Positions 1,080 through 62,600 of a stretch of DNA of 64,000 nucleotides are shown here, one piece after another. Both the position numbers and the translations under genes were made by a program. The DNA comes from a virus. The DNA lies in IMG/VR virus record IMGVR_UViG_3300023082_000009, positions 1 to 64,000 of that record; one strand, written 5' to 3'. Within the stretch, counting starts at the first letter, position 1. Every line of letters starts with the position of its first letter. The notes below the pieces were generated by a model that was not told the origin of the DNA, did not search any database, and worked only from the letters and a program-made list of their open reading frames with translations.

Positions 1080-2502
1080 TGCAAGCGCCGAAGGCAACCT
1101 CGTCACCGTAGACAAGGCCCAATTCGTAACGCTTGTGAAGAAGCCCGCTAACCAGCGCAGCTTTGGAATTCTTCGATCCGACAGAGAGGACGGCAACGTG
1201 AGCAAACCAGTAGCAGCAACCCGGCGCGTCTCGCGCACCAAGCGCAGCGATAGCAACCAGGATCTGGTTAGCCTCACGCTGCCCGGCACCCTGGACGAAG
1301 CTGCGGCCAAGGACGCCCTGGTCTCCTACGGCCTGAGCAACTTCACCGTGGCCCGCAGTGCTGACGACAGCGCCTGGGTGGCCTCCAACCCGAGTGCAAT
1401 CAATTGCACCGCAGAGCTGACCAGCGTGAACCTCGGCGAAGGTCTGGTTGCCCAGGTCAAGCGCACCGAAGCCACCGCCTCGACCGAGGGTAAGGGCCAG
1501 TTGACGGTCACTTCTCTCGAATTCTCGGGCGAAGCCTTTGCCGACGCGGGTGCCGTGAGCGAATGGTGCCAGCGAAATTCTGTTGACTTCGACGATAAAG
1601 CTCTTAACAATCCGTCTGGCAATCTTGTGTTGCAACGGGCGGAGATCCCGGAGGGTGAGGAAACTCGCCTGATGGAGCTGGAAGATGGCGTGACTGCAAC
1701 GATCATTCGTTCGCAGATCGGCGACATCCCTGACGGCTTCGTCGCGGTGATCAACGAGTATGCGTACTGCGGTTGGGGCTGGGGTCAGTTGGACTTCACC
1801 GCAGCTCTGATGGGTCGGCAGGTAACGGATGCACTGTACGACGGGATCTGGATTCTCGAAGATCTCCTCCGCAACATCCTGTTCTGGTCCGAGCTGACCG
1901 TGGACATCCGCATGGAGCTGACGACTCGGGCTTGCGCCCAGTTCGCCAACTACGCAAACGGGCTGCTCGACAGCCTCCCACGCCAACTTCTGATTTCCGT
2001 TGCAACAACTCAACGCAGTTCTAAGGAGAACGACATGAGCACCACGAAGCAACCCGCAGTAGAAGCCCAACGTACCGAACCAGCCGTGGCTCCTGCCGTG
2101 GTCGCTGTCGGTAGCCCTGAGTTCAACACCGCAGTGGCCGACGCTGTAGCCGCTGAGATCAAACGCCGCGAAGACGCCCAGGCTGAACAAGAAGCCGAAG
2201 AAGTCAAGCGCAAAGAACAGGAAGAGCTGGACAAGGCTTCCCTGGAAGAGCAAGCGAAGATTCGCCGCTCGGAGCTGGAAGAAGTTGTCGGCGCGGCCAC
2301 CAAGCCACTGCTGGAGCAGATCGAAGCACTGAAAGGCACCACCGTCGTGCGTAGCCAGGGCGGCGATCCAGAAGCCAACAAAGAAAACGTTAAGCGCGGT
2401 ACCGGCGACCTGTTCAAAGGCGTGTTCGGTATCACCCGTGCAGACCGCCGTGTCGACGCAGCCGCTGCTGCCGACGCTGACGAAGCTGCCGCAACCAAGT
2501 AA
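1054..2502 (+). CDS. Head scaffolding/maturation protein
   Basis: Lies between protease and capsid; FVTLVKKPAN motif; coiled-coil Ala/Glu-rich C-terminus; likely ATG at 1054. Confidence 0.65.
   Translation: MTSKRIQRSASAEGNLVTVDKAQFVTLVKKPANQRSFGILRSDREDGNVSKPVAATRRVSRTKRSDSNQDLVSLTLPGTLDEAAAKDALVSYGLSNFTVARSADDSAWVASNPSAINCTAELTSVNLGEGLVAQVKRTEATASTEGKGQLTVTSLEFSGEAFADAGAVSEWCQRNSVDFDDKALNNPSGNLVLQRAEIPEGEETRLMELEDGVTATIIRSQIGDIPDGFVAVINEYAYCGWGWGQLDFTAALMGRQVTDALYDGIWILEDLLRNILFWSELTVDIRMELTTRACAQFANYANGLLDSLPRQLLISVATTQRSSKENDMSTTKQPAVEAQRTEPAVAPAVVAVGSPEFNTAVADAVAAEIKRREDAQAEQEAEEVKRKEQEELDKASLEEQAKIRRSELEEVVGAATKPLLEQIEALKGTTVVRSQGGDPEANKENVKRGTGDLFKGVFGITRADRRVDAAAAADADEAAATK
1394..1409. 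repeat. Dispersed palindrome copy (in scaffold CDS)
   Basis: GTGCAATCAATTGCAC. Confidence 0.9.
2035..2502 (+). CDS. Probable in-frame internal-start scaffold product
   Basis: AAGGAGAACGACATG at 2023-2037 is identical to the RBS-start sequence of separate genes at 21819 and 61975. Confidence 0.5.
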   Translation: MSTTKQPAVEAQRTEPAVAPAVVAVGSPEFNTAVADAVAAEIKRREDAQAEQEAEEVKRKEQEELDKASLEEQAKIRRSELEEVVGAATKPLLEQIEALKGTTVVRSQGGDPEANKENVKRGTGDLFKGVFGITRADRRVDAAAAADADEAAATK

Positions 2503-2567
2503 CCAATCGGCGCGAGCCACACCGTTACGTTTCACCACTTTATGTCTAAGGACTTAGGAGCAAGAAC

Positions 2568-3593
2568 ATGAGCACCTCCCCAAGTGAAATGATCACTCGC
2601 GCTGACTTGGCCCTTGCGGATCTCGCCAACAACGGCGGTATCCTGCAACCCGAGCAGGCGAACCAGTTCATCGACTTCATCTACAACGAACCGACCATCC
2701 TGCGTCAGGCCCGTTTCATTCGCATGAACGCGCCACAACGCAACATCAACCGCATGGGCTTCGGCTCCCGCATCCTGCGTGCCGCTCGCCAAACTGGCTC
2801 GGCCCTGGACGCTGGTGGTAACGACCGCTACGTTCGCGCTGCGGACCGTGCCAAGCCGCAAGCAACTCAGATCCAGCTGAACACTTCCGAAGTGATCGCC
2901 GAAGTGCGCCTGCCGTACGAAGTGCTGGAAGACAACATCGAAGGCGAGAGCTTCGAGGCTCACGTCCTGCGCGCCATCGCTACCAAGGTTGCAGAAGACC
3001 TGGAAGAGCTGGCTCTCTGGGGCGACACCACCTCGGGCGACCCGTACCTCGCTCTGCAAGATGGCTGGATGAAGCGTGCCAACCTGCACGTCTTCGACAA
3101 CCTGGACACCGGCTTCAACGCCAACACCATCACCTCCGGCCTGCTGATGATGCCTTCCAAGTATCTCCGCAACATGCCGCAGATGAAGGCGTTCGTTGGC
3201 CTGCGCAACCAGCTCCGCTACGCTCAGTACCTGTCCGCTCGCGGCACGGCAATGGGCGACGCCGCACTCCAAGGCACCATCCCGCTGAAAGCGGCTGGTA
3301 TCACCGTGGAAGGCGCTGGCATGCTGGACGTGCACGGCGACGGCGACCAGGGCCTGATCACCATGCCGCAGAACCTGATCTGGGGTGTGCAGCGTGAGAT
3401 CACCATCGAAACCGACAAGGACATCCGTTCCCGCGAATACATCATCGTTGTGACTGCCCGTGTGGCGCTGCAAGTCGATGACCGTGACGCGCTGGTTCGC
3501 CTGGACAACATCGGTAACGTGGCTGACCCATCGCTGGCGGTGCGTGTGACCAACACCGCAGCTGCGCCGGTCAACACCAAAGAAGTGCCTTAA
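2568..3593 (+). CDS. Major capsid protein (HK97 fold)
   Basis: GGILQPEQANQFID and YEVLEDNIEG motifs; strong RBS; biased codon use; followed by a terminator. Confidence 0.9.
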   Translation: MSTSPSEMITRADLALADLANNGGILQPEQANQFIDFIYNEPTILRQARFIRMNAPQRNINRMGFGSRILRAARQTGSALDAGGNDRYVRAADRAKPQATQIQLNTSEVIAEVRLPYEVLEDNIEGESFEAHVLRAIATKVAEDLEELALWGDTTSGDPYLALQDGWMKRANLHVFDNLDTGFNANTITSGLLMMPSKYLRNMPQMKAFVGLRNQLRYAQYLSARGTAMGDAALQGTIPLKAAGITVEGAGMLDVHGDGDQGLITMPQNLIWGVQREITIETDKDIRSREYIIVVTARVALQVDDRDALVRLDNIGNVADPSLAVRVTNTAAAPVNTKEVP

Positions 3594-3606
3594 TCCGCAC
3601 TGAACG

Positions 3607-3632
3607 AAAAGGGGCGCTTCGGCGCCCTTTTT
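3607..3632 (+). terminator. Rho-independent terminator after capsid gene
   Basis: AAAAGGGGCGC-TTCG-GCGCCCTTTTT. Confidence 0.85.
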
Positions 3633-3665
3633 CACTAGAGAGATGGCAAACCCTGGAGATCTACC

Positions 3666-4364
3666 ATGAGCACTTATGTAAAATCCGTTTACCTCGCACG
3701 CGTCGGCCTTGCAGGCATCGACAAACCAGTCGAGAAAAACCAGATCATCGAAGTGGCCGATGACGTGGCTGAAAAGCTGCTGACTCGCACCGCGTGGAGC
3801 GAAGACCTGGGCAAGGAAGTCAACGTCTGGGAAAAGTCCACCGCTGCGGCCTACAAGGCACAGCAGGAAAAAGCGGCCAAGGATAAAGCTGCTGAGCAGT
3901 CCTCGCAGTACGCTGCGCAGGAAGAAGGCAACGACGACCTCGCGCCGAAGCCGATCCCCCTGCAACAGGTCAAGAACACCAACGACACTCACGAAGATCA
4001 GAACGATCCGGCTGATGGCAAGGACGCTGCCCGCAAGGCGCAGCCAGTCGTTGAACCAACTGAGCCCAACGCTGACGCGAAAGGCAAAGTCGTCACCACC
4101 GAAAGCCCTCCAGCTATCGAAGGTGCCGAGCACGAGTTGGACGAGAACCACGGTGACCTGACCAGCGCGGACCTGAACACCAACAAGTCCGAAACCGAAC
4201 CAGCCAAGCCTGCTGCTAAGGCCGCTGCCAAACCAGCCGTGAAGGTGAAGTCTGCCGACACCAGCACCCGCGCCGTGGCCAAGCCTCAGCGTGCTGCCAA
4301 GCCTGCTGTGAAGGCTGCCGTCAAACCAGCTGCTAAACCGGCTGCGAAGAAACCTGCTAAGTAA
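3666..4364 (+). CDS. Hypothetical head-module protein with Lys/Pro/Ala-repeat (KPAA) tail
   Basis: GGAG RBS; C-terminal KPAAK repeats. Confidence 0.7.
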   Translation: MSTYVKSVYLARVGLAGIDKPVEKNQIIEVADDVAEKLLTRTAWSEDLGKEVNVWEKSTAAAYKAQQEKAAKDKAAEQSSQYAAQEEGNDDLAPKPIPLQQVKNTNDTHEDQNDPADGKDAARKAQPVVEPTEPNADAKGKVVTTESPPAIEGAEHELDENHGDLTSADLNTNKSETEPAKPAAKAAAKPAVKVKSADTSTRAVAKPQRAAKPAVKAAVKPAAKPAAKKPAK

Positions 4365-4388
4365 ACCAACTGAACTCTGGGAGGCACT

Positions 4389-5030
4389 ATGTACATTTTG
4401 ACCGCAACCGAGATCGCCGAAGGTAGTGGCGGTATTCAAGGCGCCAACGGCACCCCGTGCGGGACGCCTCCCCAGAGTCAGTTCAATTCCCTCCAAGACG
4501 TGATCCGCAGTCGCGTCGAGGCAGCCCTGGAGATCGGTAGCCTTCGTCGCTACGAGTGCCAGGACACATTCGAGGTTTCTGGGCGCTACAGCGAGATGCG
4601 GCGCCTACGCCTCACCAACGGCTTCGTGCAATCTGTGTCCTTCCTGGACGCGGCTGGCGAGCCGTTAATCGACACACCAGCAACGCACTTCGACGGCTAC
4701 TACGGGATCGTGACTCATCCTTTGTCGGCGGGCGTTGTAACAGTCCAGTACGTGAGCGGGTTCCTGGCCGACTCTTCCAAGGTCTTCCAAGACCTGCCGG
4801 ACTGGGTGAAACCAATTGCACTGAACGTGATGTTCCTCTGGCTGCGCTCGATGAACCGGGGCGCCGCGATCAAGGACATCTCCCAGGCATCGCTCACTGC
4901 CGGGATGATCCGGGAGCTGACTGCACGCGTAGGCAACCGCTACCAGCGCCCTCGGGTGGGCTGCATTTTCCCTACCACGCATAAGCACCGGCTGATCTCC
5001 GACCCAGTATCGGAGTGGAAGCAATGGTAA
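4389..5030 (+). CDS. Head-tail adaptor/connector protein
   Basis: Position after capsid; V-x-Y-x-x-G-F...LPDWVK pattern typical of adaptors. Confidence 0.6.
   Translation: MYILTATEIAEGSGGIQGANGTPCGTPPQSQFNSLQDVIRSRVEAALEIGSLRRYECQDTFEVSGRYSEMRRLRLTNGFVQSVSFLDAAGEPLIDTPATHFDGYYGIVTHPLSAGVVTVQYVSGFLADSSKVFQDLPDWVKPIALNVMFLWLRSMNRGAAIKDISQASLTAGMIRELTARVGNRYQRPRVGCIFPTTHKHRLISDPVSEWKQW
4806..4821. repeat. Dispersed palindrome, degenerate copy (in adaptor CDS)
   Basis: GTGAAACCAATTGCAC, 2 mismatches. Confidence 0.5.
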
Positions 5031-6920: not shown

Positions 6921-6936
6921 ATGCAATCAATTGCAC
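6921..6936. repeat. Dispersed palindrome copy (on a start codon)
   Basis: ATGCAATCAATTGCAC. Confidence 0.9.
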
Positions 6937-11100: not shown

Positions 11101-13303
11101 CACCCAGTCCCGTGGCACCGCCGAAGAGGAGGTCAAGAAGAAGGTAGTTGAAACGTCGCTGACCATGCTGGAGAGCGCCAACAACGTCGTGGCCCAGGTG
11201 CAGCAGAATCTCGGCGCATACCTGACCCAGATCAAGGCACAGGGCAACCTGGGCGACAACGTGATCGGCTCGCTGGACCGCCTGCCTGAGCTGCTGAATA
11301 ACTCGCTGCCTCAGCTGTCTGCGCTGCTGCGGATCATGCAGGGTATCAAAGGCACTGCCCAAGGCTTCACCGGGGCTCTGGCGCCTCCGAAGGTCACAGC
11401 TCCTACCGGCGATGGCTCCTTCAACCCCGGTGCCAACAGCGGCAAAGGCGAAGCCCGCGCACTGTCCAAGGCCCGCGTGGAGCTGGCCCGTGCCGAGCTG
11501 CAAGCGATTGCCAACCTGGAGAAGCAAGGCGTCACCGAGCAGACCGCTGCCCTGGAGTATGGCTACGGCAAAGGCCTGGAGACGATCCAACGCTACTACG
11601 ACAAGCGCAAGTCGCTGGCCCAGGAGAACCTGGACATCGAGACCCGCTTGAAGACCGACGAGATCTCCGCGCTCAACAAGGAGCTGGGCGAGGCCGAGGT
11701 AGAGAGTGCCCGCGTTCGGGTCAAAGCCCAGATCGTTAAAGCCGAGGGCGACCTCAAGCTGCTGTCTGCCCAGCGCAAAGCGTTGAACGACACCAACGAC
11801 CGCGAACGGGCGGACGCTGTGCGCGACTTCGCTGACAAGCTGATCAACCAGCAGAAGACCCTCGTTGAATACTTCGGCGCGGCAAACGACAGTGAGGCAT
11901 TCAAGGCTTCGCTCGACTCTGCTGCTGCGTCCTACCGTGACTTCGTGCAGAAGCTGCGCACCGAGGCAGAGGGCCAACCTGAGCTGCTGAAACTGGCGGA
12001 TGCTATCGAGACCCAGGGCCGCTTCGAGGCAACCGAGGCCGCGCTGCAATCAATTGCACGGGAAGCCACGCTGACCTCCGGCCAGTTCGACCTCGTGAAC
12101 CAGCGGATCGCCATGCTGCGGGATAACGGCACCATCACCGGGGTTCAAGCCTCGGGTGCGTACGCCGAGATCCGCAAGTCGATCATTGCCGTCAAGGAGG
12201 CGGAGCTGTCGCGGGCGGAGGCACAGCTGGCCCAGCTCTACGATGCCAACAAGGCCCTGGATGAGCAGTCCCTGAAATACAAGGAGCTGGCCCTGACCGT
12301 GGCCGGGTCCAAGCAATCCCTGGAAGTGTTGAAGACGCAAGCCAACGACACCGCCAAGGAAATCAACACCAGCGTCAACGGTGCGTTCAAGCAGCTGTTC
12401 GTGGACCTGTCCAACCCAGACGCAAGCCTGATGGACGCGGTGCGCACCTTCGGCTTGAAGATCCTTAGCTCGCTGACTGACGTTGCAGCAGGTGGTCTGG
12501 CCGATGCACTGACCCAAGGCATGGGCGGTATGGCTGGCGGCCTGGGCGGGATCTTCTCTTCCCTGTTCGGCGGCGACGGCGGCACCGTGGACACCAAGGG
12601 TACTGAGTTGAACCCTATGATCACCAAGGAGTGGGCTGCGGGTACTGGCCTGGGTCTGGGTGGCGACCTCGCCGGTAAAGCGGGTGACGCAGCCAAGGAC
12701 GCCCCGGCAGGCATCATCAGCCAGGGCCTGGACATGGTGACCAACGGGATCGGCAACCTGGGCAGCACCCTCATGGGCGGCCTGTCTTCCCTGGGCGGGG
12801 GTATCGCCAACGTGTTCGGCGGCGGCATCAGCCAACTGATGGGCTTCATCGGCCCGCTGTTCAGTTCCCTGATCGCAGCCATCTTCTCGTCGAGCGCGGC
12901 AAGCGGCACCTCCTCGGCTATCGGGGCGGCAGGTTCGGCAGCCATGATGGCACACACCGGGGGTATCGCAGGTCGGCTGACAATGAGCCGTAGCCATAGC
13001 GCGATGCCAGCAGGCTGGGCTGTGTACCACTCCGGTGGTATCGTAGGCCAGCGCCCTGATGAGGTCTCCGCTCTGCTGCGTAAAGGCGAGGAGGTCATCA
13101 CCCAGGACGACCCACGCCACCGCGACAACCTGAGCAAAGATCAGGAGAAAGGCGGCGGTACCCAGAACATCCGAGTGGTGCCCGTTCTCGACCCAGGCGT
13201 GGTCACCGATGCGATGTCTTCGTCCCAGGGCGAAACCGTGGTCGTGGCTCACATCAAGAAGAACGCGTCGGCTATCCGCCAAGTGCTGAACATCAAGCAA
13301 TAA
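8156..13303 (+). CDS. Tape measure protein
   Basis: 1715 aa, Ala-rich and helical; FEAQMANVQKTT N-terminal block; HTGG/HSGG...GEEVIT C-terminus. Confidence 0.95.
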   Translation: MAGNESNLDVNIRGNDGLTPALNQIESKLIRFVGAVSSALTAIKVVGFPVQAVRQFEAQMANVQKTTNFTDGQIKSLSNSLVDMSRKINISANDLGAIAAAAGQQGLGREGVDGVKQFTETVSRMAAVLDLTADQAGANVGKIASVFKVSLRDIEGVSSAINQVSNNSTATGEQLLDVVKRIGNAAGALNLQQTIGLAATGLDLGQSPEVVGTSYAKIFAEMFARADQFSKLLGISTKEWMQVLQRDGIEALKMYYAGLRKLSAEDQQKTIKALSGGGRIGVLVTKGVQDTDNALLDRNLRNAQEGRTSGTSALREQMTVLKTLDAEISKLSNSFTALGIKSGEVFGPKLAGYLAQLNAALANPAVIAFAENVGKSFLSLFDTVASGIKWIASLNVNWENFITVAKVMLGLKLAQFFLSMAGSVPLLGTALRAVGLQAITAGEQQAAGSAAANSALQNQILKIKELMAARATAAAAAKAQTEAEIALSKALVAQKAAETKNLQAQTALKARNTVIAGASAGITAAKGGVTAAQAAAAGNLGATMQAQNARIEQAEQAHQARRTAIVAEGEKARGLARALGDTASVKLANQLQTQALAQEDAFQARSLTSINSYYAKRIATVRAAGLAEVGAAQAGLMASFTRFDSVSQGRGFAVLTTNARMAAIALQQADAAVVKASADLAVADAATRKSATGWLALRNAVQLAGTAFQAILGIAARVFLWATIIYTVLDAFHLLDGIGGIVQKFTDKIGLTSEASRKLAQAERDRADAHDAATAKLQEAIKVLDTFIDKRDGLIDKGFEAQLNAGLGDADPNVQKKALDDLVSAVEGAYAKLDSAKQAAVNLPGIADSTKADLDAVVAEIAAAQTQIEALQTKQRTGAGSRFGGIAENGAIKELQNKITELQGVQKLLEASVGKIGPNTAAATDTAVAKTQQNLEKLSQYVSKAFTNESADAFIKFVPDYIKAVEAKEAADKALAKAQEEYTQSRGTAEEEVKKKVVETSLTMLESANNVVAQVQQNLGAYLTQIKAQGNLGDNVIGSLDRLPELLNNSLPQLSALLRIMQGIKGTAQGFTGALAPPKVTAPTGDGSFNPGANSGKGEARALSKARVELARAELQAIANLEKQGVTEQTAALEYGYGKGLETIQRYYDKRKSLAQENLDIETRLKTDEISALNKELGEAEVESARVRVKAQIVKAEGDLKLLSAQRKALNDTNDRERADAVRDFADKLINQQKTLVEYFGAANDSEAFKASLDSAAASYRDFVQKLRTEAEGQPELLKLADAIETQGRFEATEAALQSIAREATLTSGQFDLVNQRIAMLRDNGTITGVQASGAYAEIRKSIIAVKEAELSRAEAQLAQLYDANKALDEQSLKYKELALTVAGSKQSLEVLKTQANDTAKEINTSVNGAFKQLFVDLSNPDASLMDAVRTFGLKILSSLTDVAAGGLADALTQGMGGMAGGLGGIFSSLFGGDGGTVDTKGTELNPMITKEWAAGTGLGLGGDLAGKAGDAAKDAPAGIISQGLDMVTNGIGNLGSTLMGGLSSLGGGIANVFGGGISQLMGFIGPLFSSLIAAIFSSSAASGTSSAIGAAGSAAMMAHTGGIAGRLTMSRSHSAMPAGWAVYHSGGIVGQRPDEVSALLRKGEEVITQDDPRHRDNLSKDQEKGGGTQNIRVVPVLDPGVVTDAMSSSQGETVVVAHIKKNASAIRQVLNIKQ
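12044..12059. repeat. Dispersed palindrome copy (in tape measure CDS)
   Basis: CTGCAATCAATTGCAC. Confidence 0.9.
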
Positions 13304-13313: not shown

Positions 13314-15866
13314 ATGTCTATCAAACTTTGGCCGTTTCGCCCTGACTGGGAGGCTGGCGTTCTTGAACGGCTGGAGTGGCTCACGGACATGATGGCAAGC
13401 ACGAAAGGGGCGGAGCAGCGCCGCCCCCAACGGCTGACGCCTCGCCGTACCTTTGAGGCCACCTTCCTGCCACACGGTCGCCAACGCTCCGTCTTCGATC
13501 TCCTGGTCATGGAGAAGGGTAACGACGATTGGTACATCCCCTTGTGGTTCGACCACGACGTGCTGCGGGAGGACACCCCTGCGGCGCTGACCGAGCTGTA
13601 CACCGACTACGAAGACCGCGAGTTCACAGCTGGCGGTTTGGCCGTTATCAGGCCCGTCACTTCTGCTGACCATGAACACCACACCTTCACCTACGAACTG
13701 GTGCGCGTGGTCAACAGCAAACAGAACCGCCTCGTCGTGGTCCGTGGCCAGGAAGGTACCGTCGCACGCGATTGGCCACGAGGCTCCGAGATCTACCCAG
13801 TACGGCAGGCCCGCTTCATGGACCAGCCAAACGTCAGCATCGTGTCTGCCAGCATCGTGTCGACCAACATGAAGTTCGTGGTCACCGAGCCCAACGAGTG
13901 GCACGGCGGCAAGCATTATTCGGGCTATGGCGACGCCTACGGGCGCAGCTACGGCAAGTACCGCGACGTTTCCCCGCGTACGCCAGCGAAGAACCTGGGG
14001 ACGGTAGCGTCTCCGTGGTTTATGCCAGCGTTCGAGGGCATCCGGGTGATGAACGCCGAGCCCGACTACAACCAGGACATGAGCTACACCTACGACCGCC
14101 TGCTGAACATCCTGGACAACGAGAACGGCATTCCGAAGTACACCGACAGCCTGGGCTTCGCCACTCCTGCCCAGCAGCACACATGGTTCCTCAATGGCCG
14201 CGCCGAGCAGGCTGCCTACCGGACCATGCTGTACTTCCTGCGCGGCAAGGTGAAACCGGTCTGGCTGCCGACCTTCGCGGACGATGTGCAATTGATTGCA
14301 CCGACCCCGGCTGGCCAGAACTGGATCGACATCAGGAAGATCGGGTACACCGACGGCGGGCGGACCGTGATCAGTCGCCAATGCTTGGCCATCCAGAAGA
14401 ACAACGGAGAGTGGCACTTCGCTCGTATCACCGGCTGCGCCAACGTGGGCGACCACGAGCGCCTGGAGCTGAGCATGCACTTCCTGGAAGACCTCAACCC
14501 GAAGGACATCTACAAGATCTCCTTCATGGCCGTGGCTCGCCTGGACCAGGACGGTATCGAGATCAACCACGTCACCGATAACAAGGGCTTGGCCAAGTCG
14601 GTCATCACCTTCCGGGTGGCGCCGAACATTCGCCAGTACGTTCCCTGGGCGGTAACTTGGCCACCGACCTGGAGAGCGTGCGACCGCACCTGCGCCCAGA
14701 TGCCACGCGTGGAAAACATCGTCGGCTTTGGTCTGCCGAACGAAGACTGGAGCATCGAAGACACGATCACCACCACCCAGTACGCATGGCTGTACTACGC
14801 GCTCTGCTACTCGCAGAAGTACATCAGCACCGAGACGCTGGAGCTGGATGAGCTGCAAGAGTATTTTGCGTGGGCTCTCGGTGGGCCGTTCGGCGGGAGG
14901 CCTTGGGTCTACAACCCGCAGAGCGTGATCAACTCCTTCAACTTCCAGTATTACCTCTGGACCGGGTACAACCGCGCCGCGCAGTTGCAGTTCCTGGGAA
15001 CAGTCCTGCCAGATAAGTTCTTGGAAGAGATCGCGTCCTTCGATGACAAGAAGCTGTACGACTACTACATTCGCCAGCAGATGTACTGGAGCTACCAGAC
15101 TTACATGGAGAGCGGGTGGCAGTGCCAGCACCAGAACGTCAAGCTGCACATCCGCAACTGGCTGCCGTTCAAGCGACTGACCGAGATCCCGCAGTCGTGC
15201 AAGAACAACATGCTCGGCAAGTTCTGCGTGCAGTCCACCTACACGCGGTCCCCTATTGACCGGCACCCTACGAACGCCCGAGGGTCTCACAACGTCTACG
15301 CGGCTGGCCTCATCCACGAGATGTTGAAGCACACCTCGCCAGAGTGGCCACTCGACCAAACCCTGCTGGGTCAGTCCTACAGCCACGCGATCATGCCCTA
15401 TAACGGCAACGGCCTGCACTCGTCCTGCGGCTGCCTAGCGTTGCAGTTTGTAGAGTCGCACAACGGCCTGCGCACGCAGCTGTCTGACCCGAGCGACGAC
15501 AGTCAGCAAAAGGTGCTTTGGTGGCACCGGGCGGAGGCTGCGTGGCTCACCCCGGCTCCTTGGCCTAACCAGATCCGCTTGCTCATGTACGACAGCCTGA
15601 CCGGCTATCTTTTGCGGACCCTGGACATGGACGTGGAGAACTACCCGGTGAGCGGCTATGGCACTGAGTTCGACCGACCTGCGTGGCACACCGAGGACGA
15701 CGAGTTCCCTGAGCCGCAGATCTATAACGCCAACTTGGTTGTATTCCGCAAATCGTATGGCCGGGAAGATTCTCAGACCCTGCTGCACCCCGACCCTTGG
15801 GACAATATCTGGAACGTGGTACCACTCAACTCGAAGGGATTTGTGGTAGAAGTCTACCCACGGTAA
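13314..15866 (+). CDS. Distal tail protein with long C-terminal extension
   Basis: WPFRPDW...ERLEWLTD...EQR motif of siphophage tail-tip proteins following the tape measure. Confidence 0.7.
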   Translation: MSIKLWPFRPDWEAGVLERLEWLTDMMASTKGAEQRRPQRLTPRRTFEATFLPHGRQRSVFDLLVMEKGNDDWYIPLWFDHDVLREDTPAALTELYTDYEDREFTAGGLAVIRPVTSADHEHHTFTYELVRVVNSKQNRLVVVRGQEGTVARDWPRGSEIYPVRQARFMDQPNVSIVSASIVSTNMKFVVTEPNEWHGGKHYSGYGDAYGRSYGKYRDVSPRTPAKNLGTVASPWFMPAFEGIRVMNAEPDYNQDMSYTYDRLLNILDNENGIPKYTDSLGFATPAQQHTWFLNGRAEQAAYRTMLYFLRGKVKPVWLPTFADDVQLIAPTPAGQNWIDIRKIGYTDGGRTVISRQCLAIQKNNGEWHFARITGCANVGDHERLELSMHFLEDLNPKDIYKISFMAVARLDQDGIEINHVTDNKGLAKSVITFRVAPNIRQYVPWAVTWPPTWRACDRTCAQMPRVENIVGFGLPNEDWSIEDTITTTQYAWLYYALCYSQKYISTETLELDELQEYFAWALGGPFGGRPWVYNPQSVINSFNFQYYLWTGYNRAAQLQFLGTVLPDKFLEEIASFDDKKLYDYYIRQQMYWSYQTYMESGWQCQHQNVKLHIRNWLPFKRLTEIPQSCKNNMLGKFCVQSTYTRSPIDRHPTNARGSHNVYAAGLIHEMLKHTSPEWPLDQTLLGQSYSHAIMPYNGNGLHSSCGCLALQFVESHNGLRTQLSDPSDDSQQKVLWWHRAEAAWLTPAPWPNQIRLLMYDSLTGYLLRTLDMDVENYPVSGYGTEFDRPAWHTEDDEFPEPQIYNANLVVFRKSYGREDSQTLLHPDPWDNIWNVVPLNSKGFVVEVYPR
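14286..14301. repeat. Dispersed palindrome copy (in tail CDS, reverse orientation)
   Basis: GTGCAATTGATTGCAC. Confidence 0.9.
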
Positions 15867-21790: not shown

Positions 21791-21806
21791 GTGCAATCAA
21801 TTGCAC
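21791..21806. repeat. Dispersed palindrome copy (intergenic)
   Basis: GTGCAATCAATTGCAC. Confidence 0.9.
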
Positions 21807-25506: not shown

Positions 25507-25522
25507 ATGCAATTGATTGCAC
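25507..25522. repeat. Dispersed palindrome copy (intergenic, reverse)
   Basis: ATGCAATTGATTGCAC. Confidence 0.9.
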
Positions 25523-26970: not shown

Positions 26971-26993
26971 AAGCCCGCCGAGTTGCGGGCTTT
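26971..26993 (+). terminator. Terminator-like hairpin before endolysin
   Basis: AAGCCCGC-CGAGTT-GCGGGCTTT; short U-tract runs into the palindrome. Confidence 0.5.
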
Positions 26994-28702: not shown

Positions 28703-28714
28703 CATCTCGTCGCC

Positions 28715-40325: not shown

Positions 40326-40781
40326 ATGTCCGAAGAACGCATCATCCGCCGCACACGCACCGTAGCCCGAGGGGTACTCCGCCAGGAGCCTACTCACCTG
40401 GGCGACATCAACCAACGCATGCAATTGATTGCAGAAGCCGAGGCCGAGATCCGCAAGACCCTGGAGGCCATCGAGACAGCCAAGGCCGAAGTGGAAGACC
40501 TCATGAAGGCCGCAAAGCTGACCACCCACGAGCACCTGGGGCTGATCGCGGAGTGGGTCGAGACCAAGACCAACTCGTCTACCGAAGTCAGCGTAGAAGC
40601 GGCTCGCAAGGCGATCAGGAACGACAAGGACTTCTTCTCCGTCCTCAAGGTCCAGATGGGTCCGCTGGGCAAGGTGCTGTCCGAGAACGAGATCAAGGCC
40701 ATCGCCAAGGTCACGCCCGGTCAGGTCACCGGCAAGAAGTTCCAGATCATGCAACCGAAAAAGAAGGCAGGCAAAAAATGA
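40326..40781 (+). CDS. Hypothetical protein
   Basis: AGGAG RBS; coiled coil; IIRRTR N-terminus. Confidence 0.7.
   Translation: MSEERIIRRTRTVARGVLRQEPTHLGDINQRMQLIAEAEAEIRKTLEAIETAKAEVEDLMKAAKLTTHEHLGLIAEWVETKTNSSTEVSVEAARKAIRNDKDFFSVLKVQMGPLGKVLSENEIKAIAKVTPGQVTGKKFQIMQPKKKAGKK
40419..40434. repeat. Dispersed palindrome copy (in CDS, reverse)
   Basis: ATGCAATTGATTGCAG. Confidence 0.9.
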
Positions 40782-43978: not shown

Positions 43979-45667
43979 ATGCGCCCGGCTATCCTTGCGG
44001 GCGCTATGAAGCTCCCTCTCGATAGTATCGACGCCCCTGCCGTAAAGAAGCTGACCACCTACAAGCATCGCCCCCTGGGCCTTGCCGACGGTGAGCCAGA
44101 TCTGGAGGTCGAGGCTTGGTACTACGAGGGGGATTTTCTTTGCGTGCCCCGCCAGCTCGGGATCACGCTGTGCAATCAGTTGCACATCGAGATCGAAGAT
44201 CAGACCAGTGATGGGTTCCCTGCCGTCTTCCCTTGCATCCCCGATCCCAGGGTGTACCAGGAGCCGCAGATCGACCAGATCGTGGAAACCTTCGACAGCT
44301 TTTACGACTTCATCTTCCGTGCCCATACCGGGTGGGGTAAGACCGTGGGCTCCCTCATTGCCGCAGCGCGGATGGGGCGGACCACCATTGTCATCGTTGA
44401 CCAGGACAACCTCCGGGAGCAGTGGGAGGAGTGCCTGATCAAGTTGTTCGGCTTCAAGCCCGAGGAGATCGGGATCATCCAGGGGCCGGAGAAGAAGTGG
44501 CGCTGGAAGGGACTGGCCGTAACCATCGCTATGGTGCAGACCCTCAGCCAGAAGGGCGTGTCGGAGGAGATGGCGGAATACTACGGTACTGCCATCGTCG
44601 ACGAGGTACACACCGCTGGCGCCCCGACGTTCTCCGCCTCCCTGGTCATGTTCAGCGCCGGTCGACGCCTGGGCGTGTCTGCTACTCCTGGTCGCCGTGA
44701 TGGCCTCCAGCGCGCCCTGGACCACAACCTGGGCAAGATCCGCGTGGCAGCCGACAAGGAGCACGACCGCTCCGCCGTCTACGTGATCCGTCACGAGACC
44801 GTCTACAGCTTCTACGGCAACGTGTCCAAGATGACCGGGCGGATCTTCTCCGAGGTCGAGGAGGATGGCCCGCGTAACATGACGATCATGGAGGCAGCTC
44901 TCTGGCTGTACGAGTCGGGGCGGGACGTGCTGATCCTCTCGGACCGTATCGAGCAGCTGCGGGAGCTGATGAGCATCGGCTATTACCTGGGGGTGCCCGA
45001 GGAGGAGATGGGCCTGTATACTGGCCACGACCCCCAGTGGATCTTCGGCAAAGACCCGAAGCCTACCAAGAGACCTGATGACCTGCACCGATGGAAAGAC
45101 GACCGAGGCCGCTTCGTGTACGCGGAGTACAGCGCGGTCGGTTTGCAGCTCGTGAGGAAACGAATTCCTAAAGCCACACTCAAACAGGTCAAAGAAAGAT
45201 GCACGATGATGTTTGCTACATACGGGATGTGCTCAAAGGGCTTCGACAAACCCAGCCTCACGGGCGGCATCGACGCTACACCTAGAAGCACGGCAGAACA
45301 GATTCACGGTCGGATTCTCCGAGGGGAAGACGGCAGGCCAATACCGATCTGGGTAACCATCGCCGACGTGAACAGCTACCGACTGATGTATTCGTTCGGT
45401 AGTCGGGTGAAGGAGTATCTCAAAAGCAATGGTGTCCTCTTTGAGTGGCACCCAGACGGGAGTGTTGAACCATGCGACGTGACAGACCTAAAGGCAGAGA
45501 TCTACGACCGGGTAACCGAGCTGAAATCTATGCAGATCCAAACCAACAGCGACGGGCTAAATATTCTGCTGACGGCCAAGGACGCGCAGAGAAACAAGCG
45601 GACAGCCGAGCGCGCTATAATGCAAAAGTTCCAAAGACCGCCAGCCCGCCTGCCCCGCCATCAGTGA
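43979..45667 (+). CDS. Superfamily 2 DNA helicase
   Basis: AHTGWGKT, DEVH, SATP, QIHGRILR. Confidence 0.9.
   Translation: MRPAILAGAMKLPLDSIDAPAVKKLTTYKHRPLGLADGEPDLEVEAWYYEGDFLCVPRQLGITLCNQLHIEIEDQTSDGFPAVFPCIPDPRVYQEPQIDQIVETFDSFYDFIFRAHTGWGKTVGSLIAAARMGRTTIVIVDQDNLREQWEECLIKLFGFKPEEIGIIQGPEKKWRWKGLAVTIAMVQTLSQKGVSEEMAEYYGTAIVDEVHTAGAPTFSASLVMFSAGRRLGVSATPGRRDGLQRALDHNLGKIRVAADKEHDRSAVYVIRHETVYSFYGNVSKMTGRIFSEVEEDGPRNMTIMEAALWLYESGRDVLILSDRIEQLRELMSIGYYLGVPEEEMGLYTGHDPQWIFGKDPKPTKRPDDLHRWKDDRGRFVYAEYSAVGLQLVRKRIPKATLKQVKERCTMMFATYGMCSKGFDKPSLTGGIDATPRSTAEQIHGRILRGEDGRPIPIWVTIADVNSYRLMYSFGSRVKEYLKSNGVLFEWHPDGSVEPCDVTDLKAEIYDRVTELKSMQIQTNSDGLNILLTAKDAQRNKRTAERAIMQKFQRPPARLPRHQ
44170..44185. 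repeat. Dispersed palindrome copy (in helicase CDS)
   Basis: GTGCAATCAGTTGCAC. Confidence 0.85.
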
Positions 45668-45990
45668 GGCGAGGACATCGGCGCGAGGTGAGTCAAGCTG
45701 ATATGGACGGTACCGCAATCGTAGAGAGCTACACGGTGCCCGAGGCGGCGGAGGCAATGGGCAAAGCCCTGAACACCTTCCGACGCTGGATACACGATGA
45801 ACTGATCCCTGGCCCGTACCTGCATGACACGCAGTCGGGGTATCTGGTCTACAGCAGAGGCGAGCTGGACATAATCGCCCAGGCACTGCAAGTGCACGCC
45901 GAGGAGTTCTCCTACTTCCGGGCGGACCACACGACAGTGATTCATGCAATCAACCAGCGCATCCAGGCATACCGCTCGATGCACATCTGA
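45472..45990 (+). CDS. MerR-type helix-turn-helix protein (start uncertain, 45472 or 45703)
   Basis: YTVPEAAEAMGKALNTFRRW...LIP...VYS pattern. Confidence 0.65.
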   Translation: MRRDRPKGRDLRPGNRAEIYADPNQQRRAKYSADGQGRAEKQADSRARYNAKVPKTASPPAPPSVRRGHRREVSQADMDGTAIVESYTVPEAAEAMGKALNTFRRWIHDELIPGPYLHDTQSGYLVYSRGELDIIAQALQVHAEEFSYFRADHTTVIHAINQRIQAYRSMHI

Positions 45991-49445: not shown

Positions 49446-49461
49446 ATGCAATTGATTGCAC
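49446..49461. repeat. Dispersed palindrome copy (upstream of promoter, reverse)
   Basis: ATGCAATTGATTGCAC. Confidence 0.9.
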
Positions 49462-49569: not shown

Positions 49570-51063
49570 ATGGCAAACACCAAAGCTAAATCCGCTCCGG
49601 TTGAGGAAGCGGCTGCCGACATCGAAGTCGGTTCCAATGTCACCTTCCTCGGCTACGATGCCGACACCCCCGAAGCCGAACGCATCCTCGAAGCTGGCGA
49701 GCGTTACGAAGTAATCGAACTGCCCGGCACCACCGAGATCGACGGCGAAGTTGTCGAAACCGGTTACGTTCTGCGCCTGCCGAACCCTGACTTCAACAAG
49801 AAGAAAAAGGTTCACGCCGAAACCAACCCTGAATTCCTGGAAACCGAAGTCTTCGCCGAAGAGATCGAACTCTACGTTGAAGGCGACGATGCGGGTGCCG
49901 AAGGTGGCGAAGCTGCCGACGCGGGCGCTGATGCCCCAGGCGATGATGACCCTCTGACCTACGAAGAGCTGGCCGGTTACGACAAAGCCCAGCTGCTCGA
50001 ATTCGCAGAAGTCAACGAAGTCAAGCTGACCGCAGCTGACAAGAAAACCGACAAGGCGCTCCTGGCCAAGCTGGCTGCCGTCTACGAGCTGAGCCCTGCC
50101 GAGCCTGCCCCTACCAAGGCACCGGCCAAACCAGCAGCCAAAACTGCCGCAGCCAAGCCTGCCGCCGAAGCGCCTGCTGCCAAGCCTGAAACCGCCGCAG
50201 CCAAGAAAAAGCGTGAAGCTGCCGAAGCCGCGCAGAAGACCGCAGCCGCTGCCAAGAACAAAGGCGTGAACAAGTCGCCCGAAGGCGAAGTCGATCCTGA
50301 CGAAGTGCCGGACCTGGACAACGAAGACGATGCCGTTCTGGCGTTGATCGACGGTGACGTGGATCTGGTCGAAGTAGCCCAGGAACTGGAATCGGCGGTG
50401 GCCGTGTCCGAGTACCAACTCGGCGGCGTGCTGTACCACATCAAAAAAGAAAAAGTGCATCTGGCCGTCGACAAGAAGGGCAAGCTGCTCAACCCTGAAT
50501 ACGGCGAAACGGGCGGCTTCAAGCTGTTCCTCCAGGAGAACTTCAACCTGGACTACCGCAAGGCCACCTACCTGATCGACATCTACATCAACTTCACCCA
50601 GGCCGGTATCGAAAACCCGTCCGAAGTTGTTGGCCGTATCGGCTGGACCAAGGCAAGCAAGATCGCCAAGCCGCTGGGCCTGCCTGACGCTGACGTAGAA
50701 GGCCTGATCCAGGCTGCCGAGAACAACACCGTTCAAGACCTGTCTACCATCATCAAAGATGAATTCACGGTCGGCGGCGGTGAGGGCGCCAGCAAAGGCT
50801 CCGAAGGTACCAAGGTCAATCGCCTGACCCTGCGCTTCCGCTTCGTTGAAGAAGAAGCCAACGTGGTCGAGGACATCCTCAAGGAAGCCGCTGAGAAACT
50901 CGGCGTCAAAGAAGATGAAGCCTTGTTCCAGATCCTGACCGAGTATCACGCACAAGCCCTGACCGGCGACGCTGATGCCCAGGACGTGGAAGACACTGCC
51001 AAGGCAGCGGCCAACGCCAAGCCAGCTACACGCGGTAAGCCTCGTGGCGCAGCTCGTGCCTAA
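49570..51063 (+). CDS. Acidic protein with AKP-rich linker, putative DNA-binding/organising protein
   Basis: Own promoter and terminator; strongly biased codons; GF...YRKA...IGWTKA C-terminal domain. Confidence 0.7.
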   Translation: MANTKAKSAPVEEAAADIEVGSNVTFLGYDADTPEAERILEAGERYEVIELPGTTEIDGEVVETGYVLRLPNPDFNKKKKVHAETNPEFLETEVFAEEIELYVEGDDAGAEGGEAADAGADAPGDDDPLTYEELAGYDKAQLLEFAEVNEVKLTAADKKTDKALLAKLAAVYELSPAEPAPTKAPAKPAAKTAAAKPAAEAPAAKPETAAAKKKREAAEAAQKTAAAAKNKGVNKSPEGEVDPDEVPDLDNEDDAVLALIDGDVDLVEVAQELESAVAVSEYQLGGVLYHIKKEKVHLAVDKKGKLLNPEYGETGGFKLFLQENFNLDYRKATYLIDIYINFTQAGIENPSEVVGRIGWTKASKIAKPLGLPDADVEGLIQAAENNTVQDLSTIIKDEFTVGGGEGASKGSEGTKVNRLTLRFRFVEEEANVVEDILKEAAEKLGVKEDEALFQILTEYHAQALTGDADAQDVEDTAKAAANAKPATRGKPRGAARA

Positions 51064-51131: not shown

Positions 51132-51893
51132 ATGCCAACTCCAATTCGCCCAGGTCGTAAGTCGGTGAACGTGACCCGACCAGAGAAGGGCAGTACCCCG
51201 GCACGCCCGTCGCGCCCTGCGCCACGGCCAAAGCCAACCGACATGTCCAAGGTCAAACTGCGCCTTGAGTACGTGGACATCAATGACATCCAGCCCTACG
51301 AATGGAACGCACGCGACAACGCCAAGGCTGTGACTGCCGTGGCCAACTCGATCAGAGCGTTCGGCTTTGTCGTGCCCGTAGTGATCGACGCCAACGGCGT
51401 GCTGGGCGCTGGCCACACTCGTGTCGAAGCAGCCAAGACCCTGGGAATGCTGGAGGTTCCTGCGGTGCGGGCGGAGCACTTGACCAAGGAACAGATGGAC
51501 GCCTTCCGTATCGCCGATAACAAGGTGGCGGAGATGGCAACCTGGAATACCTCGATGCTGGCGGATGAGATGGACAAGCTGACCGGCCTGTTCGACTTCA
51601 CCGACTTCGGTTTCGGCCAGGGCGAGATCGACTGCCTTGCGTCCCTGGTAGGCGACGACTGCCTGTCTACTGCCAACCTGGGCGCCCTCACCGGTACCGC
51701 AGCAGGCGAAGAGACTCCAGGCCGCAGCGTTCGCCGTGCGCCGCTCCAGGCCCGCATCGTGATCGGTGAGCTGACCTTCTTTGTCCCCGCCGAGCAGTAC
51801 CGTAACTGGGTGCAGGGTCTGCGCGATCTGCACGACTTCAAAGACGAAGACATTGCGGCTGATCTGAAACGCCGCCTGGGGTTCCACGAATGA
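51132..51893 (+). CDS. ParB/Srx N-terminal domain protein
   Basis: PYEWNAR, SIRAFGFVVPVVID, AGHTR, RIADNK. Confidence 0.88.
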   Translation: MPTPIRPGRKSVNVTRPEKGSTPARPSRPAPRPKPTDMSKVKLRLEYVDINDIQPYEWNARDNAKAVTAVANSIRAFGFVVPVVIDANGVLGAGHTRVEAAKTLGMLEVPAVRAEHLTKEQMDAFRIADNKVAEMATWNTSMLADEMDKLTGLFDFTDFGFGQGEIDCLASLVGDDCLSTANLGALTGTAAGEETPGRSVRRAPLQARIVIGELTFFVPAEQYRNWVQGLRDLHDFKDEDIAADLKRRLGFHE

Positions 51894-54224: not shown

Positions 54225-54240
54225 ATGCAATCAATTGCAC
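54225..54240. repeat. Dispersed palindrome copy (abuts RBS of CmoA-like gene)
   Basis: ATGCAATCAATTGCAC. Confidence 0.9.
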
Positions 54241-60483: not shown

Positions 60484-60499
60484 GTGCAATCAACTGCAC
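60484..60499. repeat. Dispersed palindrome copy (before dcd RBS)
   Basis: GTGCAATCAACTGCAC. Confidence 0.85.
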
Positions 60500-61986: not shown

Positions 61987-62298
61987 ATGAGCGACAAGAC
62001 ACCACCAGACAATGTTCGTAGCATCTCCCTAGTCGCGAGTAACTCGCAGATCAAAGGCCCAGTTGCGGAACCCGGCGCAGCCGTCAAGCACCTGAAAAGC
62101 ATGATCGAGGCGATTGAGAGCGGCGCCATGCCCGAGCCAGAGTTCGGCGTAACGATGATGGGTTTCACCGACCCTAACGAAGCGCCGATCCAGATGGAGT
62201 TCGGGACCAAGGAAGTACACCCGTACATGATTGTCGGGCTGATCGCGGAGGCCAAGATCCTTACCTTGAGCCCTGCCTTCGATGCCGACGAAGGTTAA
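61987..62298 (+). CDS. Hypothetical protein
   Basis: AAGGAG RBS. Confidence 0.65.
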   Translation: MSDKTPPDNVRSISLVASNSQIKGPVAEPGAAVKHLKSMIEAIESGAMPEPEFGVTMMGFTDPNEAPIQMEFGTKEVHPYMIVGLIAEAKILTLSPAFDADEG

Positions 62299-62320
62299 CC
62301 CACCGAGAAAGGTAATACCC

Positions 62321-62536
62321 ATGGCAGTAGTAGCGCACTTTGTAGGCGGCCCGCGTAACGGTCGCAAGAACAACCTCCAGGGCAACGACGAAGCGCCAGA
62401 CCGCATCGCCGTCACCGCCAAGGAAGCCAAGGCGGTCAACATGAAGCCAGGGCGTTACGAGATCTCCTCCAAGGAAGCGGACGGCAGCAAAGGTGTCTAC
62501 CGCTGGGTAACCCTTCAACAGGCCGAGATGGCCTAA
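62321..62536 (+). CDS. Hypothetical protein
   Basis: AAGG RBS; FVGGP-x-NG motif. Confidence 0.6.
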   Translation: MAVVAHFVGGPRNGRKNNLQGNDEAPDRIAVTAKEAKAVNMKPGRYEISSKEADGSKGVYRWVTLQQAEMA

Positions 62537-62557
62537 CCAGAGCAGCAAAGGCATTTA

Positions 62558-62582
62558 GGCCCGCTTCGGCGGGTCATTTTTT
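62558..62582 (+). terminator. Rho-independent terminator
   Basis: GGCCCGC-TTCG-GCGGGTC-ATTTTTT. Confidence 0.75.
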
Positions 62583-62584
62583 AA

Positions 62585-62600
62585 GTGCAACTAATTGCAC
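62585..62600. repeat. Dispersed palindrome copy (between terminator and RBS)
   Basis: GTGCAACTAATTGCAC. Confidence 0.8.

Follow-up and report, generated by a model that had tools for sequence, protein, structure and literature searches.

The window analysed here consists of the first 64,000 nucleotides of the virus record IMGVR_UViG_3300023082_000009, the whole of which (94,879 bp) is called G000 below. Dispersed over the window is a 16-bp quasi-palindrome, GTGCAAT-CA-ATTGCAC, a 7-2-7 inverted repeat that is the subject of this report. The 14-mer TGCAATCAATTGCA, its core, was present in 12 exact copies, each at the position given in an initial annotation made from the letters of the window, and in none of 100 dinucleotide-preserving shuffles. 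Sites with one core mismatch (34805, 44170, and 60484) and with two (4806 and 62585) were likewise present as that annotation had listed them. When up to three mismatches to the 16-mer were allowed, the window gave 31 strand-matches, equal to 17 loci, against 0.52 expected, which bore out the enrichment over a null. The whole record contained 22 exact cores and 29 sites in all. The GC content of the window was 0.60–0.62 (estimated beforehand as approximately 62%), and codon-usage gene calling placed approximately 137 genes in G000, all but one of them on the + strand. The feature is real, strongly selected, and far wider than the window.

Sites in the window

The sites are listed below, with their counterparts in two relatives, the metagenomic virus record G003 and Pseudomonas aeruginosa siphophage SM1. 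Counterparts were assigned by flanking orthologues and relative position.

1394..1409, GTGCAATCAATTGCAC, within gene 1054-2502 (frame 1); at the same place in G003 (63803) and SM1 (91850, GTGCAATCGCTTGCAC)
4806..4821, degenerate site GTGAAACCAATTGCAC, within gene 4389-5030; the G003 orthologue (67075) is also degenerate
6921..6936, ATGCAATCAATTGCAC, directly after a terminator-like T-run and a Shine-Dalgarno (SD) sequence and fused to the start codon of gene 6921-7235, where it encodes M-Q-S-I-A; same arrangement in G003 (69165) and SM1 (gp007, 3839, ATGCAAACGCTTGCAC = M-Q-T-L-A)
12044..12059, CTGCAATCAATTGCAC, within the 1715-aa tape-measure-like gene 8156-13303 (SM1 orthologue annotated as tape measure protein)
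14286..14301, site in TTGA orientation, within gene 13314-15866; kept in G003 (76592) and SM1 (12904)
21791..21806, intergenic site, 15 nt past a stop codon and 24 nt ahead of start codon 21831
25507..25522, intergenic site, downstream of terminator 25415-25432 and 19 nt ahead of start 25542 (start of the lysis region); kept in G003 (85827) and SM1 (20485)
26992..27007, intergenic site, after a GC hairpin and 12 nt ahead of endolysin-like gene 27020-27697 (SM1 orthologue annotated as endolysin); kept in G003 (87311) and SM1 (22037)
28673..28714, + strand, sigma70-like promoter TTGTAC-N18-TATAGT, its -10 ending 12 nt ahead of site 28715
28715..28730, site in operator position, over or just past the predicted transcription start of an AAA+ ATPase-DUF1257-DUF2997 module
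32122..32137, intergenic site, 5 nt past a stop codon and 13 nt ahead of DUF1257 gene 32151; the G003 orthologue (92826) has the opposite orientation
34805..34820, GCGCAATCAATTGCAC, with an uncompensated arm change, within gene 34156-35511; kept in G003 (95597) and SM1 (29623)
40419..40434, site near the 5' end of gene 40326-40781, encoding M-Q-L-I-A; the G003 orthologue (101184) is flipped
44170..44185, GTGCAATCAGTTGCAC, within ResIII/DEAD helicase gene 43979-45667; G003 orthologue at 745
49446..49461, intergenic site, preceded by TATAAG, 6 nt past a stop codon, with gene 49570 lying 108 nt downstream; flipped in the G003 orthologue (6184)
54225..54240, intergenic site, 4 nt past a stop codon and 10 nt ahead of S-adenosylmethionine (SAM)-methyltransferase gene 54251, with an adjoining SD; kept in G003 (10418) and SM1 (47937)
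60484..60499, intergenic GTGCAATCAACTGCAC, 11 nt ahead of gene 60511 (SM1 orthologue annotated as dCTP deaminase); kept in G003 (16471) and SM1 (51473)
62585..62600, GTGCAACTAATTGCAC, right after an intrinsic terminator and 11 nt ahead of start 62612

Arrays in related phages

The window gave no DNA-level match by megablast to the cultured-phage collection. The DNA polymerase is 64% identical to that of SM1 and its genus Samunavirus, and SM1 is syntenic with G000 in gene order. To find arrays in metagenomic records, IMG/VR was scanned for the exact pattern and the matching records were then searched in full; the counts for G001–G005 allow up to one mismatch in the core. The arrays were as follows.

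G001, 101 kb, 37 sites
G002, 99 kb, 21 strand-matches (self-complementary TCGA sites are counted on both strands)
G003, 104 kb, 33 sites
G004, 104 kb, 15 sites, or 27 if the arms alone are required
G005, 70 kb, 21 sites
G164, 32 sites
SM1, approximately 30 copies of GTGCAA-RCGY-TTGCAC, with the arms of G000, another centre, and similar placement
Agrobacterium phage JP1, 33 sites, TTGCAA-ACGT/ACAT-TTGCAA
Rhodobacter phage RcMenchie (cluster RcF), 27 sites, TGCAA-TCGA-TTGCA
Aeromonas phage HJ05, 16 sites, TTGCAA-CCGG/CTGG-TTGCAA
Representative variant sites: GTGCAAGCGCTTGCAC in SM1 and the relative UF_RH6; TTGCAAACGTTTGCAA in JP1

Arrays of 16–37 sites were thus found in 11 of the 11 related genomes examined, the cultured members of which come from four host genera, and the conservation looked for by the initial annotation was confirmed. 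Control matches numbered zero in each of JP1, RcMenchie, HJ05, and G164. Comparison of proteomes gave three clades: A (G000, G003, SM1, and G164), B (G001, G004, and G005), and C (G002). Only the portal, capsid, protease, polymerase, replication/recombination module, and AAA+ ATPase are common to all three, at 24–44% identity, and the DNA polymerases of the cultured phages JP1, RcMenchie, and HJ05 are only approximately 37% identical. Related contigs of approximately 100 kb numbered approximately 25 or more. None of the motif sequences was found in the literature searched, and the papers on Samunavirus, RcF phages, and related genomes describe no repeat.

Across these relatives, the core TGCAA-N4-TTGCA is invariant, and each lineage has its own outer pair (G..C or T..A) and its own centre. 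G004 keeps the arms with an essentially free centre, as expected if the spacer is not contacted. No sequence conserved beyond the 16-mer was found, save a weak GG from the ribosome-binding site (RBS). Of 28 G000 sites, at least 20 are matched by a positional counterpart in G003 and at least 10 by one in SM1, despite protein identities of 30–75%, and each counterpart bears the centre of its own genome (TCAA vs RCGY). The gene after the major tail protein illustrates this: its motif-encoded N-terminus reads MQSIA in G000 and G003 and MQTLA in SM1, a coding change by which each genome keeps its own variant. Such a concerted change at approximately 30 dispersed loci implies a co-evolving trans-acting reader.

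Since the same array recurs with a lineage-specific centre in related phages, conserved binding sites for a dimeric DNA-binding regulator are the most likely explanation. From the sites, their enrichment, conservation, symmetry, and positions, we infer that the 16-mers would on balance be duplex-DNA sites for a dimeric protein, probably encoded by the phage, that acts on transcription throughout the genome. As a whole, this is considered somewhat probable, and the protein binding, the phage encoding, and the effect on transcription are all meant conditionally.

Symmetry, placement, and spacing

The asymmetry of the motif is confined to the central CA/TG. The "asymmetric 4-bp spacer" that had been put forward as an argument against a simple homodimer operator therefore shrinks to one asymmetric pyrimidine-purine step, and the argument is weakened further by orientation. 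Intergenic sites of G000 and G003 comprise 20 in TCAA and 18 in TTGA orientation, although transcription is unidirectional (10:10 in SM1), and orthologous sites flip between genomes. The centre variants found together in one genome are always exact reverse complements of each other (TCAA/TTGA and GCGT/ACGC). A perfect core was present at 176 sites, 34 of which have A at position 1, none of them with T16; the terminal position was unpaired in 63 of the 176. Arm changes such as GCGCAAT...ATTGCAC are uncompensated as well. As to known elements, a sigma54 promoter, IHF, and the Fis consensus were compared by eye and rejected for misfit of the spacing.

Sites are concentrated between genes. The non-coding DNA of G000 (6.6%) holds 16 of the 26 high-confidence sites (binomial p 3e-13); counted over all sites, 16–17 of 26–29 fall in the approximately 7% of non-coding DNA, an approximately 9-fold enrichment, and SM1, G003, and G001 behave likewise (p 1e-7 to 1e-15). 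Site ends in G000 cluster 9–14 nt ahead of the next start codon, often with an adjoining SD, and site starts cluster at -1 to +6 nt past the previous stop codon. A terminator directly precedes sites 25507 and 62585, and in relatives, terminators also directly follow some sites. The intragenic share is approximately one-third to 40%, the tape-measure gene included, and copies persist within long genes. That sites sit so close to ribosome-binding sites and terminators could simply be a result of genome compaction.

Spacing was more even than chance. The gaps in G000 have a coefficient of variation (CV) of 0.64 (P 0.011), with one site per approximately 3 kb; even spacing was seen in four genomes (CV 0.55–0.70, P 0.0007–0.03), and in JP1 the CV was 0.56 (P<0.0002).

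These placements also bear on an RNA-level alternative, in which a hairpin 5' of the RBS or by terminators would mark where the mRNA is processed, stabilise it, or be the translational operator of an RNA-binding protein. It would draw on the approximately one-third of sites that end 0–2 nt ahead of the SD and 9–14 nt ahead of the start, and on the recurrence of stop-motif-terminator and terminator-motif-SD-start layouts. The same RNA stem arises from either orientation, the change of the outer pair from G-C to T-A between genomes preserves pairing, and the sense-strand bias of G001, G005, JP1, and HJ05 (see below) suggests strand-specific reading. Against this, the hairpin (a 6-bp stem with a 4-nt loop) is weak, at -5.2 kcal/mol and -3.1 kcal/mol for the frequent A1 variant; compensatory covariation is lacking within genomes, as the pairing counts above show; and 35–40% of the sites are intragenic at conserved positions. 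Loop variants are limited to reverse-complement pairs, which only duplex DNA explains, the sites are evenly spaced along the genome, and no Rfam family was matched. An RNA element was hence judged rather unlikely. Rfam and tRNA scans as a whole found nothing.

A second alternative, that the sites are boundary or linker sequences for recombination and module exchange, or remnants of a mobile regulatory cassette, also starts from placement. Promoter-stem-loop cassettes of T4-type phages (PeSL) are an example of the latter. Sites do mark gene and module boundaries and occur in both orientations, the identical 16-mer is found in phages that share few genes (e.g., G000 and G001), and JP1 carries a repeated promoter-motif-RBS cassette. 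However, a 16-bp sequence offers little length for homologous exchange, G000, G003, and SM1 agree in synteny and in where their sites lie, and purifying selection on the sequence is strong even inside genes. Even spacing is not predicted either, and only a very slight probability was assigned to this explanation.

Promoter sequences were examined at boundary sites. A -10-like hexamer lay 1–13 nt upstream of 10 of 21 such sites in JP1 (p 0.0016), 7 of 19 in SM1 (p 0.009), 4 of 17 in G000 (p 0.04), and 4 of 11 in G005 (p 0.02), and in total the sense side had 34 and the antisense control side 17. The excess means that a subset of sites covers transcription starts, as operators do. The promoter and site ahead of the AAA+ ATPase gene are kept together in G000, G003 (89432), and SM1 (23651). 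A fixed promoter element beside the sites was ruled out by the unconserved flanks.

Two observations concern these promoter regions. In the window (28673-33263), DUF1257 and DUF2997 genes come after that of the AAA+ ATPase (PF00004), and the ATPase is kept in nine of ten related genomes. JP1 (L300-L304; e.g., 40411, 43740, 69829, and 81390) has a repeated cassette consisting of a -10-like hexamer, TTGCAAAC(G/A)TTTGCAA, and then GGAGCAACGACCAATG, which by its sequence appears to be one promoter-operator-RBS unit reused ahead of several genes.

In the regulator reading, a symmetric dimer would bind each site, with either subunit reading a (G/T)TGCAA half-site in the major groove and the half-site centres lying 10 bp apart. 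The central pyrimidine-purine step (CA/TG or CG) would face the dimer and be tuned in each lineage. Copies a few bases downstream of a -10 would cover the transcription start like classical operators, and intergenic copies together with those within long genes may act as roadblocks or organising points every approximately 3 kb on a genome transcribed in one direction.

Several points weigh against this reading. First, no DNA-binding family common by sequence to all clades was found. Second, relatives show sense-strand bias (G001 21:2, G005 17:4, JP1 ACAT 9:0, and HJ05 CTGG 8:1), which a purely symmetric reader does not predict. Third, many sites adjoin an SD or a terminator hairpin, which would suit an RNA-level element too. 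Fourth, the phages are reported as lytic (UF_RH6 is described so; PMC10281142), which leaves lysogeny-type silencing without an obvious rationale; no integrase or repressor was recognised among the proteins scanned. Finally, most sites have no recognisable sigma70 promoter beside them and no conserved flank, and this majority away from promoters fits a roadblock or organising role over classical promoter control. As regards the biased centres, those with 9:0 (ACAT), 8:1 (CTGG), 21:2 (TCAA), and 9:0 (TCAG) lie one transition from a perfect CG-centred palindrome, and G000 and G003 contain no CG-centred site at all.

Host genomes, candidate readers, and known systems

The pattern GTGCAA-N4-TTGCAC was searched in 151 genomes of the likely host order, the GTDB order of Halieaceae and Pseudomonas, a sample that does not include P. 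aeruginosa itself or the true hosts of the window phage. Each genome had 0–3 matches with random centres, approximately 49 in total vs approximately 32 for the reversed control. The five CG-centred matches inspected were mostly inside long genes, and one was on a contig of low GC that may be phage-like. A search of 596 Gb of bacterial genomes for the exact 16-mer gave mostly chance-level single matches, the exceptions being Reyranella metagenome-assembled genomes (MAGs) and one uncultured proteobacterium with prophage-like clusters. The 151 genomes sampled showed no enrichment that would point to a host regulon. The proposal of a genome-wide protein-binding signal in the initial annotation thus gained from enrichment, conservation, the concerted centre, the uncompensated arms, and absence from the sampled host-order genomes, all of it indirect support.

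Among the bacterial copies, the Reyranella MAGs G006 and G007 (L270-L285) carry the 16-mer followed by a purine, 9–16 per genome over many contigs. They always lie in long intergenic regions poor in open reading frames (ORFs), within a larger repeat (…ctgcagccacg…ctt-GTGCAAT…), sometimes as degenerate tandem copies. A prophage region of Aliihoeflea sp. 2WW (L167, 2240-2278 and 3790-3805) has three copies in the first codons of two minus-strand genes, two of them 23 bp apart; they encode …V-Q-S-I-A…, an echo of M-Q-S-I-A in window gene 6921.

A host transcription factor, e.g., of the PurR/CytR type of the LacI/GalR family, could couple phage expression to host physiology. Operators of this family (PurR box, cre, and CytR half-sites) share with the arrays the even palindrome TG-N-AA-N-CG-N-TT-N-CA and its central kinkable CpG, which is fitted in the core by SM1 TGCAAGCGCTTGCA, JP1 TGCAAACGTTTGCA, and RcMenchie TGCAATCGATTGCA; these cores also match the PurR box core, GCAAACGTTTGC. 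The central kinkable pyrimidine-purine step is kept, arms are identical in phages of very different gene content, and the same 16-mer is scattered over the Reyranella MAG chromosomes. The window variant, however, has CA rather than CG at its centre. A LacI-type helix-turn-helix (HTH; PF00356) was absent from G000 in a six-frame whole-genome search at E<=10, the control search of which was positive in 14 of 14 genomes, and a phage-encoded LacI-type reader was rejected on that ground. Moreover, no host regulon was found: the 151 genomes held few, randomly centred copies, with CG-centred ones mostly within long genes. Phage-borne specificity is suggested by the centre, which varies among close relatives and changes jointly at the sites of one genome, and the hosts range over Alpha- and Gammaproteobacteria. 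The missing LacI-type HTH, the copy numbers in the 151 genomes, and the chance-level occurrence of the 16-mer elsewhere make a host reader unlikely for Pseudomonas-type phages, and for the array in general, this explanation is very unlikely.

Pfam, PHROGs, and NCBIfam were run on approximately 45 proteins. The scans gave weak HTH matches for 45703-45990 and for a putative small terminase (54972-55760), and ParB-N for 51132 and 52395. Four proteins were retained as candidates (51132, 69663, 49570, and 45703), each a weak lead. Those in the window are the following.

51132..51893, + strand, weak candidate reader, ParB-like; its N domain, of CTP-binding type, and the first helices of its DNA-binding domain superpose on ParB/Noc/KorB
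49570..51063, + strand, weak candidate reader of 497 aa with Lys/Ala-rich stretches; the only uncharacterised family present in nine of ten motif-bearing genomes
45703..45990, + strand, weak candidate reader of 95 aa with sub-threshold excisionase/MerR-type HTH matches; clade A only

The 49570-51063 protein had no match in Pfam, PDB, or NCBIfam and belongs to PHROG 17202; a motif site lies before its gene. Its conserved core reads …YRKAxYLIxIY…IGWSKA…, and in nine of ten related phages the gene is syntenic after a RuvC-like resolvase. In SM1, gp050 belongs to this family, gp084 to the 69663 family, gp051 is the ParB-like protein, and gp044 is an HTH protein.

The fourth candidate, 69663-70022, lies outside the window and is a basic early protein of 119 aa, the best-conserved early gene, with a conserved site just downstream. 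Modelled from 42 sequences (predicted local distance difference test score (pLDDT) 75), it has the order helix, helix, beta-hairpin, helix. The structural neighbours are weak (E 4e-3 to 7e-2, template modelling (TM) score 0.4–0.5) and all are dimeric winged-helix DNA binders, namely, Sso10a-2, TubR, AspA, MarR, ArsR, and PadR. G000, G003, and SM1, the sites of which have identical arms, do not differ in the predicted recognition helix, and the G164 orthologue, from a genome whose outer arm base differs, has nine substitutions in it; this is a single event in the most divergent orthologue. A homodimer prediction scored below the mark and, being without controls, counts neither for nor against. 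A search for loci related to this family gave three loci. Profile searches for 69663, 42367, 33283, 45703, 40326, and 70117 in clades B and C gave no matches, and the 69663 family was found in clade A only.

The ParB-like protein 51132-51893 was modelled from a 38-sequence alignment (pLDDT 83), and residues 44–180 superposed on ParB, Noc, and KorB with Z 11.9–14.4 and a root-mean-square deviation of 2.5–3.2 over 123–135 aligned residues. Its CTP box reads GHTR in place of GERR, and the family-consensus helices at the HTH position are acidic. ParB-N (PF02195) was present in six of the seven genomes searched (G000, G002–G005, and SM1) and not found in G001, the record of which is 66% complete. 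ParB-N proteins of different clades are not orthologous: that of G004 is fused to an N6/N4 DNA methyltransferase, and the C-terminus differs in G002 and G005. Upstream of the putative terminase genes, the window has the ParB-like protein and a fusion of ParB-N with a class-I SAM methyltransferase (51132-53951), followed by a SAM methyltransferase (54251-54961).

In a parS-like explanation, the palindromes would load a ParB-family CTP-dependent clamp (51132-51893 and/or the ParB-N-methyltransferase fusion 52395-53951) that slides a few kb, so that, with a site every approximately 3 kb, the entire genome would become coated or modified. KorB on plasmid RK2, with 12 dispersed palindromic operators, provides the model for this. 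The resemblance of the 16-bp palindrome to parS, the regular spacing, the wide occurrence of ParB-N, and the superposition, first DNA-binding-domain helices included, speak for it. The lack of orthology across clades, the absence from the incomplete G001 record, the acidic region equivalent to the ParB HTH, and the altered CTP box speak against it, as do the lack of a visible ParA partner and the commonness of ParB-N domains in phages. The parS-like loading suggested by the initial annotation is thus possible without being supported, and this explanation was judged unlikely. Cluster O phages, which have a similar array, also encode a ParB-like protein (PMC4351075).

In a further reading, a conserved phage protein would read TGCAA-N4-TTGCA every approximately 3 kb and recruit or load ParB-fold proteins, some of them methyltransferase-fused, so that the array would be the cis half of an unrecognised genome-wide DNA-organising system; we regard this as distinctly unlikely. 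With as little confidence, such a system would define a superfamily of approximately 80–105-kb siphophages of Proteobacteria, the chromosome of which would be coated, silenced in a timed way, or modified. The recognition protein could then, just as speculatively, be the 49570-51063 family or a winged-helix adaptor like 69663-70022, for which the archaeal AspA-ParB system of pNOB8 offers an analogy.

The remaining suggestion of nicking or ejection marks found no support, and nicking or packaging marks were rejected: a palindrome would give double-strand cuts, and the ligase gene is absent from SM1.

Genome-spanning operator-like palindromes are known from few groups, namely, stoperators, the function of which is known, and the unexplained repeats of Cluster O. 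Cluster O mycobacteriophages (Corndog) carry more than 30 copies of the 17-bp 7-3-7 palindrome TGTTCGG-NNN-CCGAACA (PMC4351075). Both arrays consist of a 7-bp inverted repeat with invariant arms and a short, variable spacer across the genome of a non-temperate siphophage, with many sites in short intergenic regions and approximately one-third intragenic. In both, orientation is independent of transcription, the site is absent from the host genome (here, from the sampled host-order genomes), and the candidate binders include a ParB-like protein. In sequence the two are unrelated, with a 3-bp spacer there and a 2-bp one here. The Cluster O array is limited to one cluster and one host, whereas the present one keeps an invariant core over at least four proteobacterial genera with a lineage-specific centre, and one-third of its sites adjoin an SD, unlike in Cluster O. 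The correspondence holds as a description, with no homology claimed.

Stoperators of Cluster A mycobacteriophages, read by L5 gp71 (PMC9283540, PMC6550527), are the closest system of known mechanism, and Cluster O repeats are the closest described phenomenon. With stoperators, too, one short site recurs 20–35 times along the genome, chiefly in narrow gaps between genes, and one protein is proposed to act at promoters and as an elongation block. They are, however, asymmetric 13–14-bp sites, bound by a monomer and oriented with transcription, whereas the present sites are dyad-symmetric and orientation-neutral in clade A; they also belong to temperate phages with an immunity repressor, whereas the phages here are reported as lytic. 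Orientation with transcription was not found in G000, G003, and SM1, and some distant relatives are biased (e.g., G001, 21:2). Stoperator-like sites, as proposed by the initial annotation, or operator-like ones fit best by function, and the asymmetric site and transcription-tied orientation of stoperators were not found.

KorB/OB of RK2 is the closest ParB-family analogue. Like parS/ParB, it has dispersed palindromes of 13–16 bp, and a ParB-fold protein is encoded here as well (Z approximately 12–14). OB and parS are read by a ParB-family protein able to act at a distance, whereas the ParB-like proteins here are candidate readers; a non-canonical CTP box and putative HTH, non-orthology across clades, and the lack of a visible ParA/KorA partner set the present system apart. 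Start-associated sequences (SAS) of Cluster K mycobacteriophages (PMC3203893) are also repeated directly upstream of the start codons of a subset of genes. They are asymmetric, include the RBS, and are tied to translation starts, whereas the motif here is a palindrome and 35–40% intragenic.

The array is conserved over a large and mostly uncultured phage superfamily with an invariant core and a lineage-specific centre, and the cultured phages of P. aeruginosa, Agrobacterium, Rhodobacter, and Aeromonas offer four tractable systems for its reader and role. Were the reader a global regulator, it would account for the timing of unidirectionally transcribed genomes of approximately 95 kb with few recognisable promoters. 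Some members, the Samunaviruses, are under consideration for phage therapy, which makes an understanding of their regulatory logic useful.

A segment of approximately 300 bp, AT-rich (45–46% GC) and ORF-free, lies between two motif copies at G000 75493-75807 (L286 11493-11807) and has a homologue in G003 (41224-41526). Other site pairs approximately 300 bp apart occur in G003 (37715/38017) and in the uncultured proteobacterium G008. Segments of the G000 type could be an origin or control region.

The motif also provides a simple sequence signature for spotting this phage group in metagenomes. On a contig from a bacterial MAG (L289; G119:C13, 16.5 kb, 43% GC), an SM1-type site, GTGCAAGCGTTTGCAC, immediately precedes a minus-strand SD and start codon, and the contig may be a phage of the same superfamily binned into a MAG.

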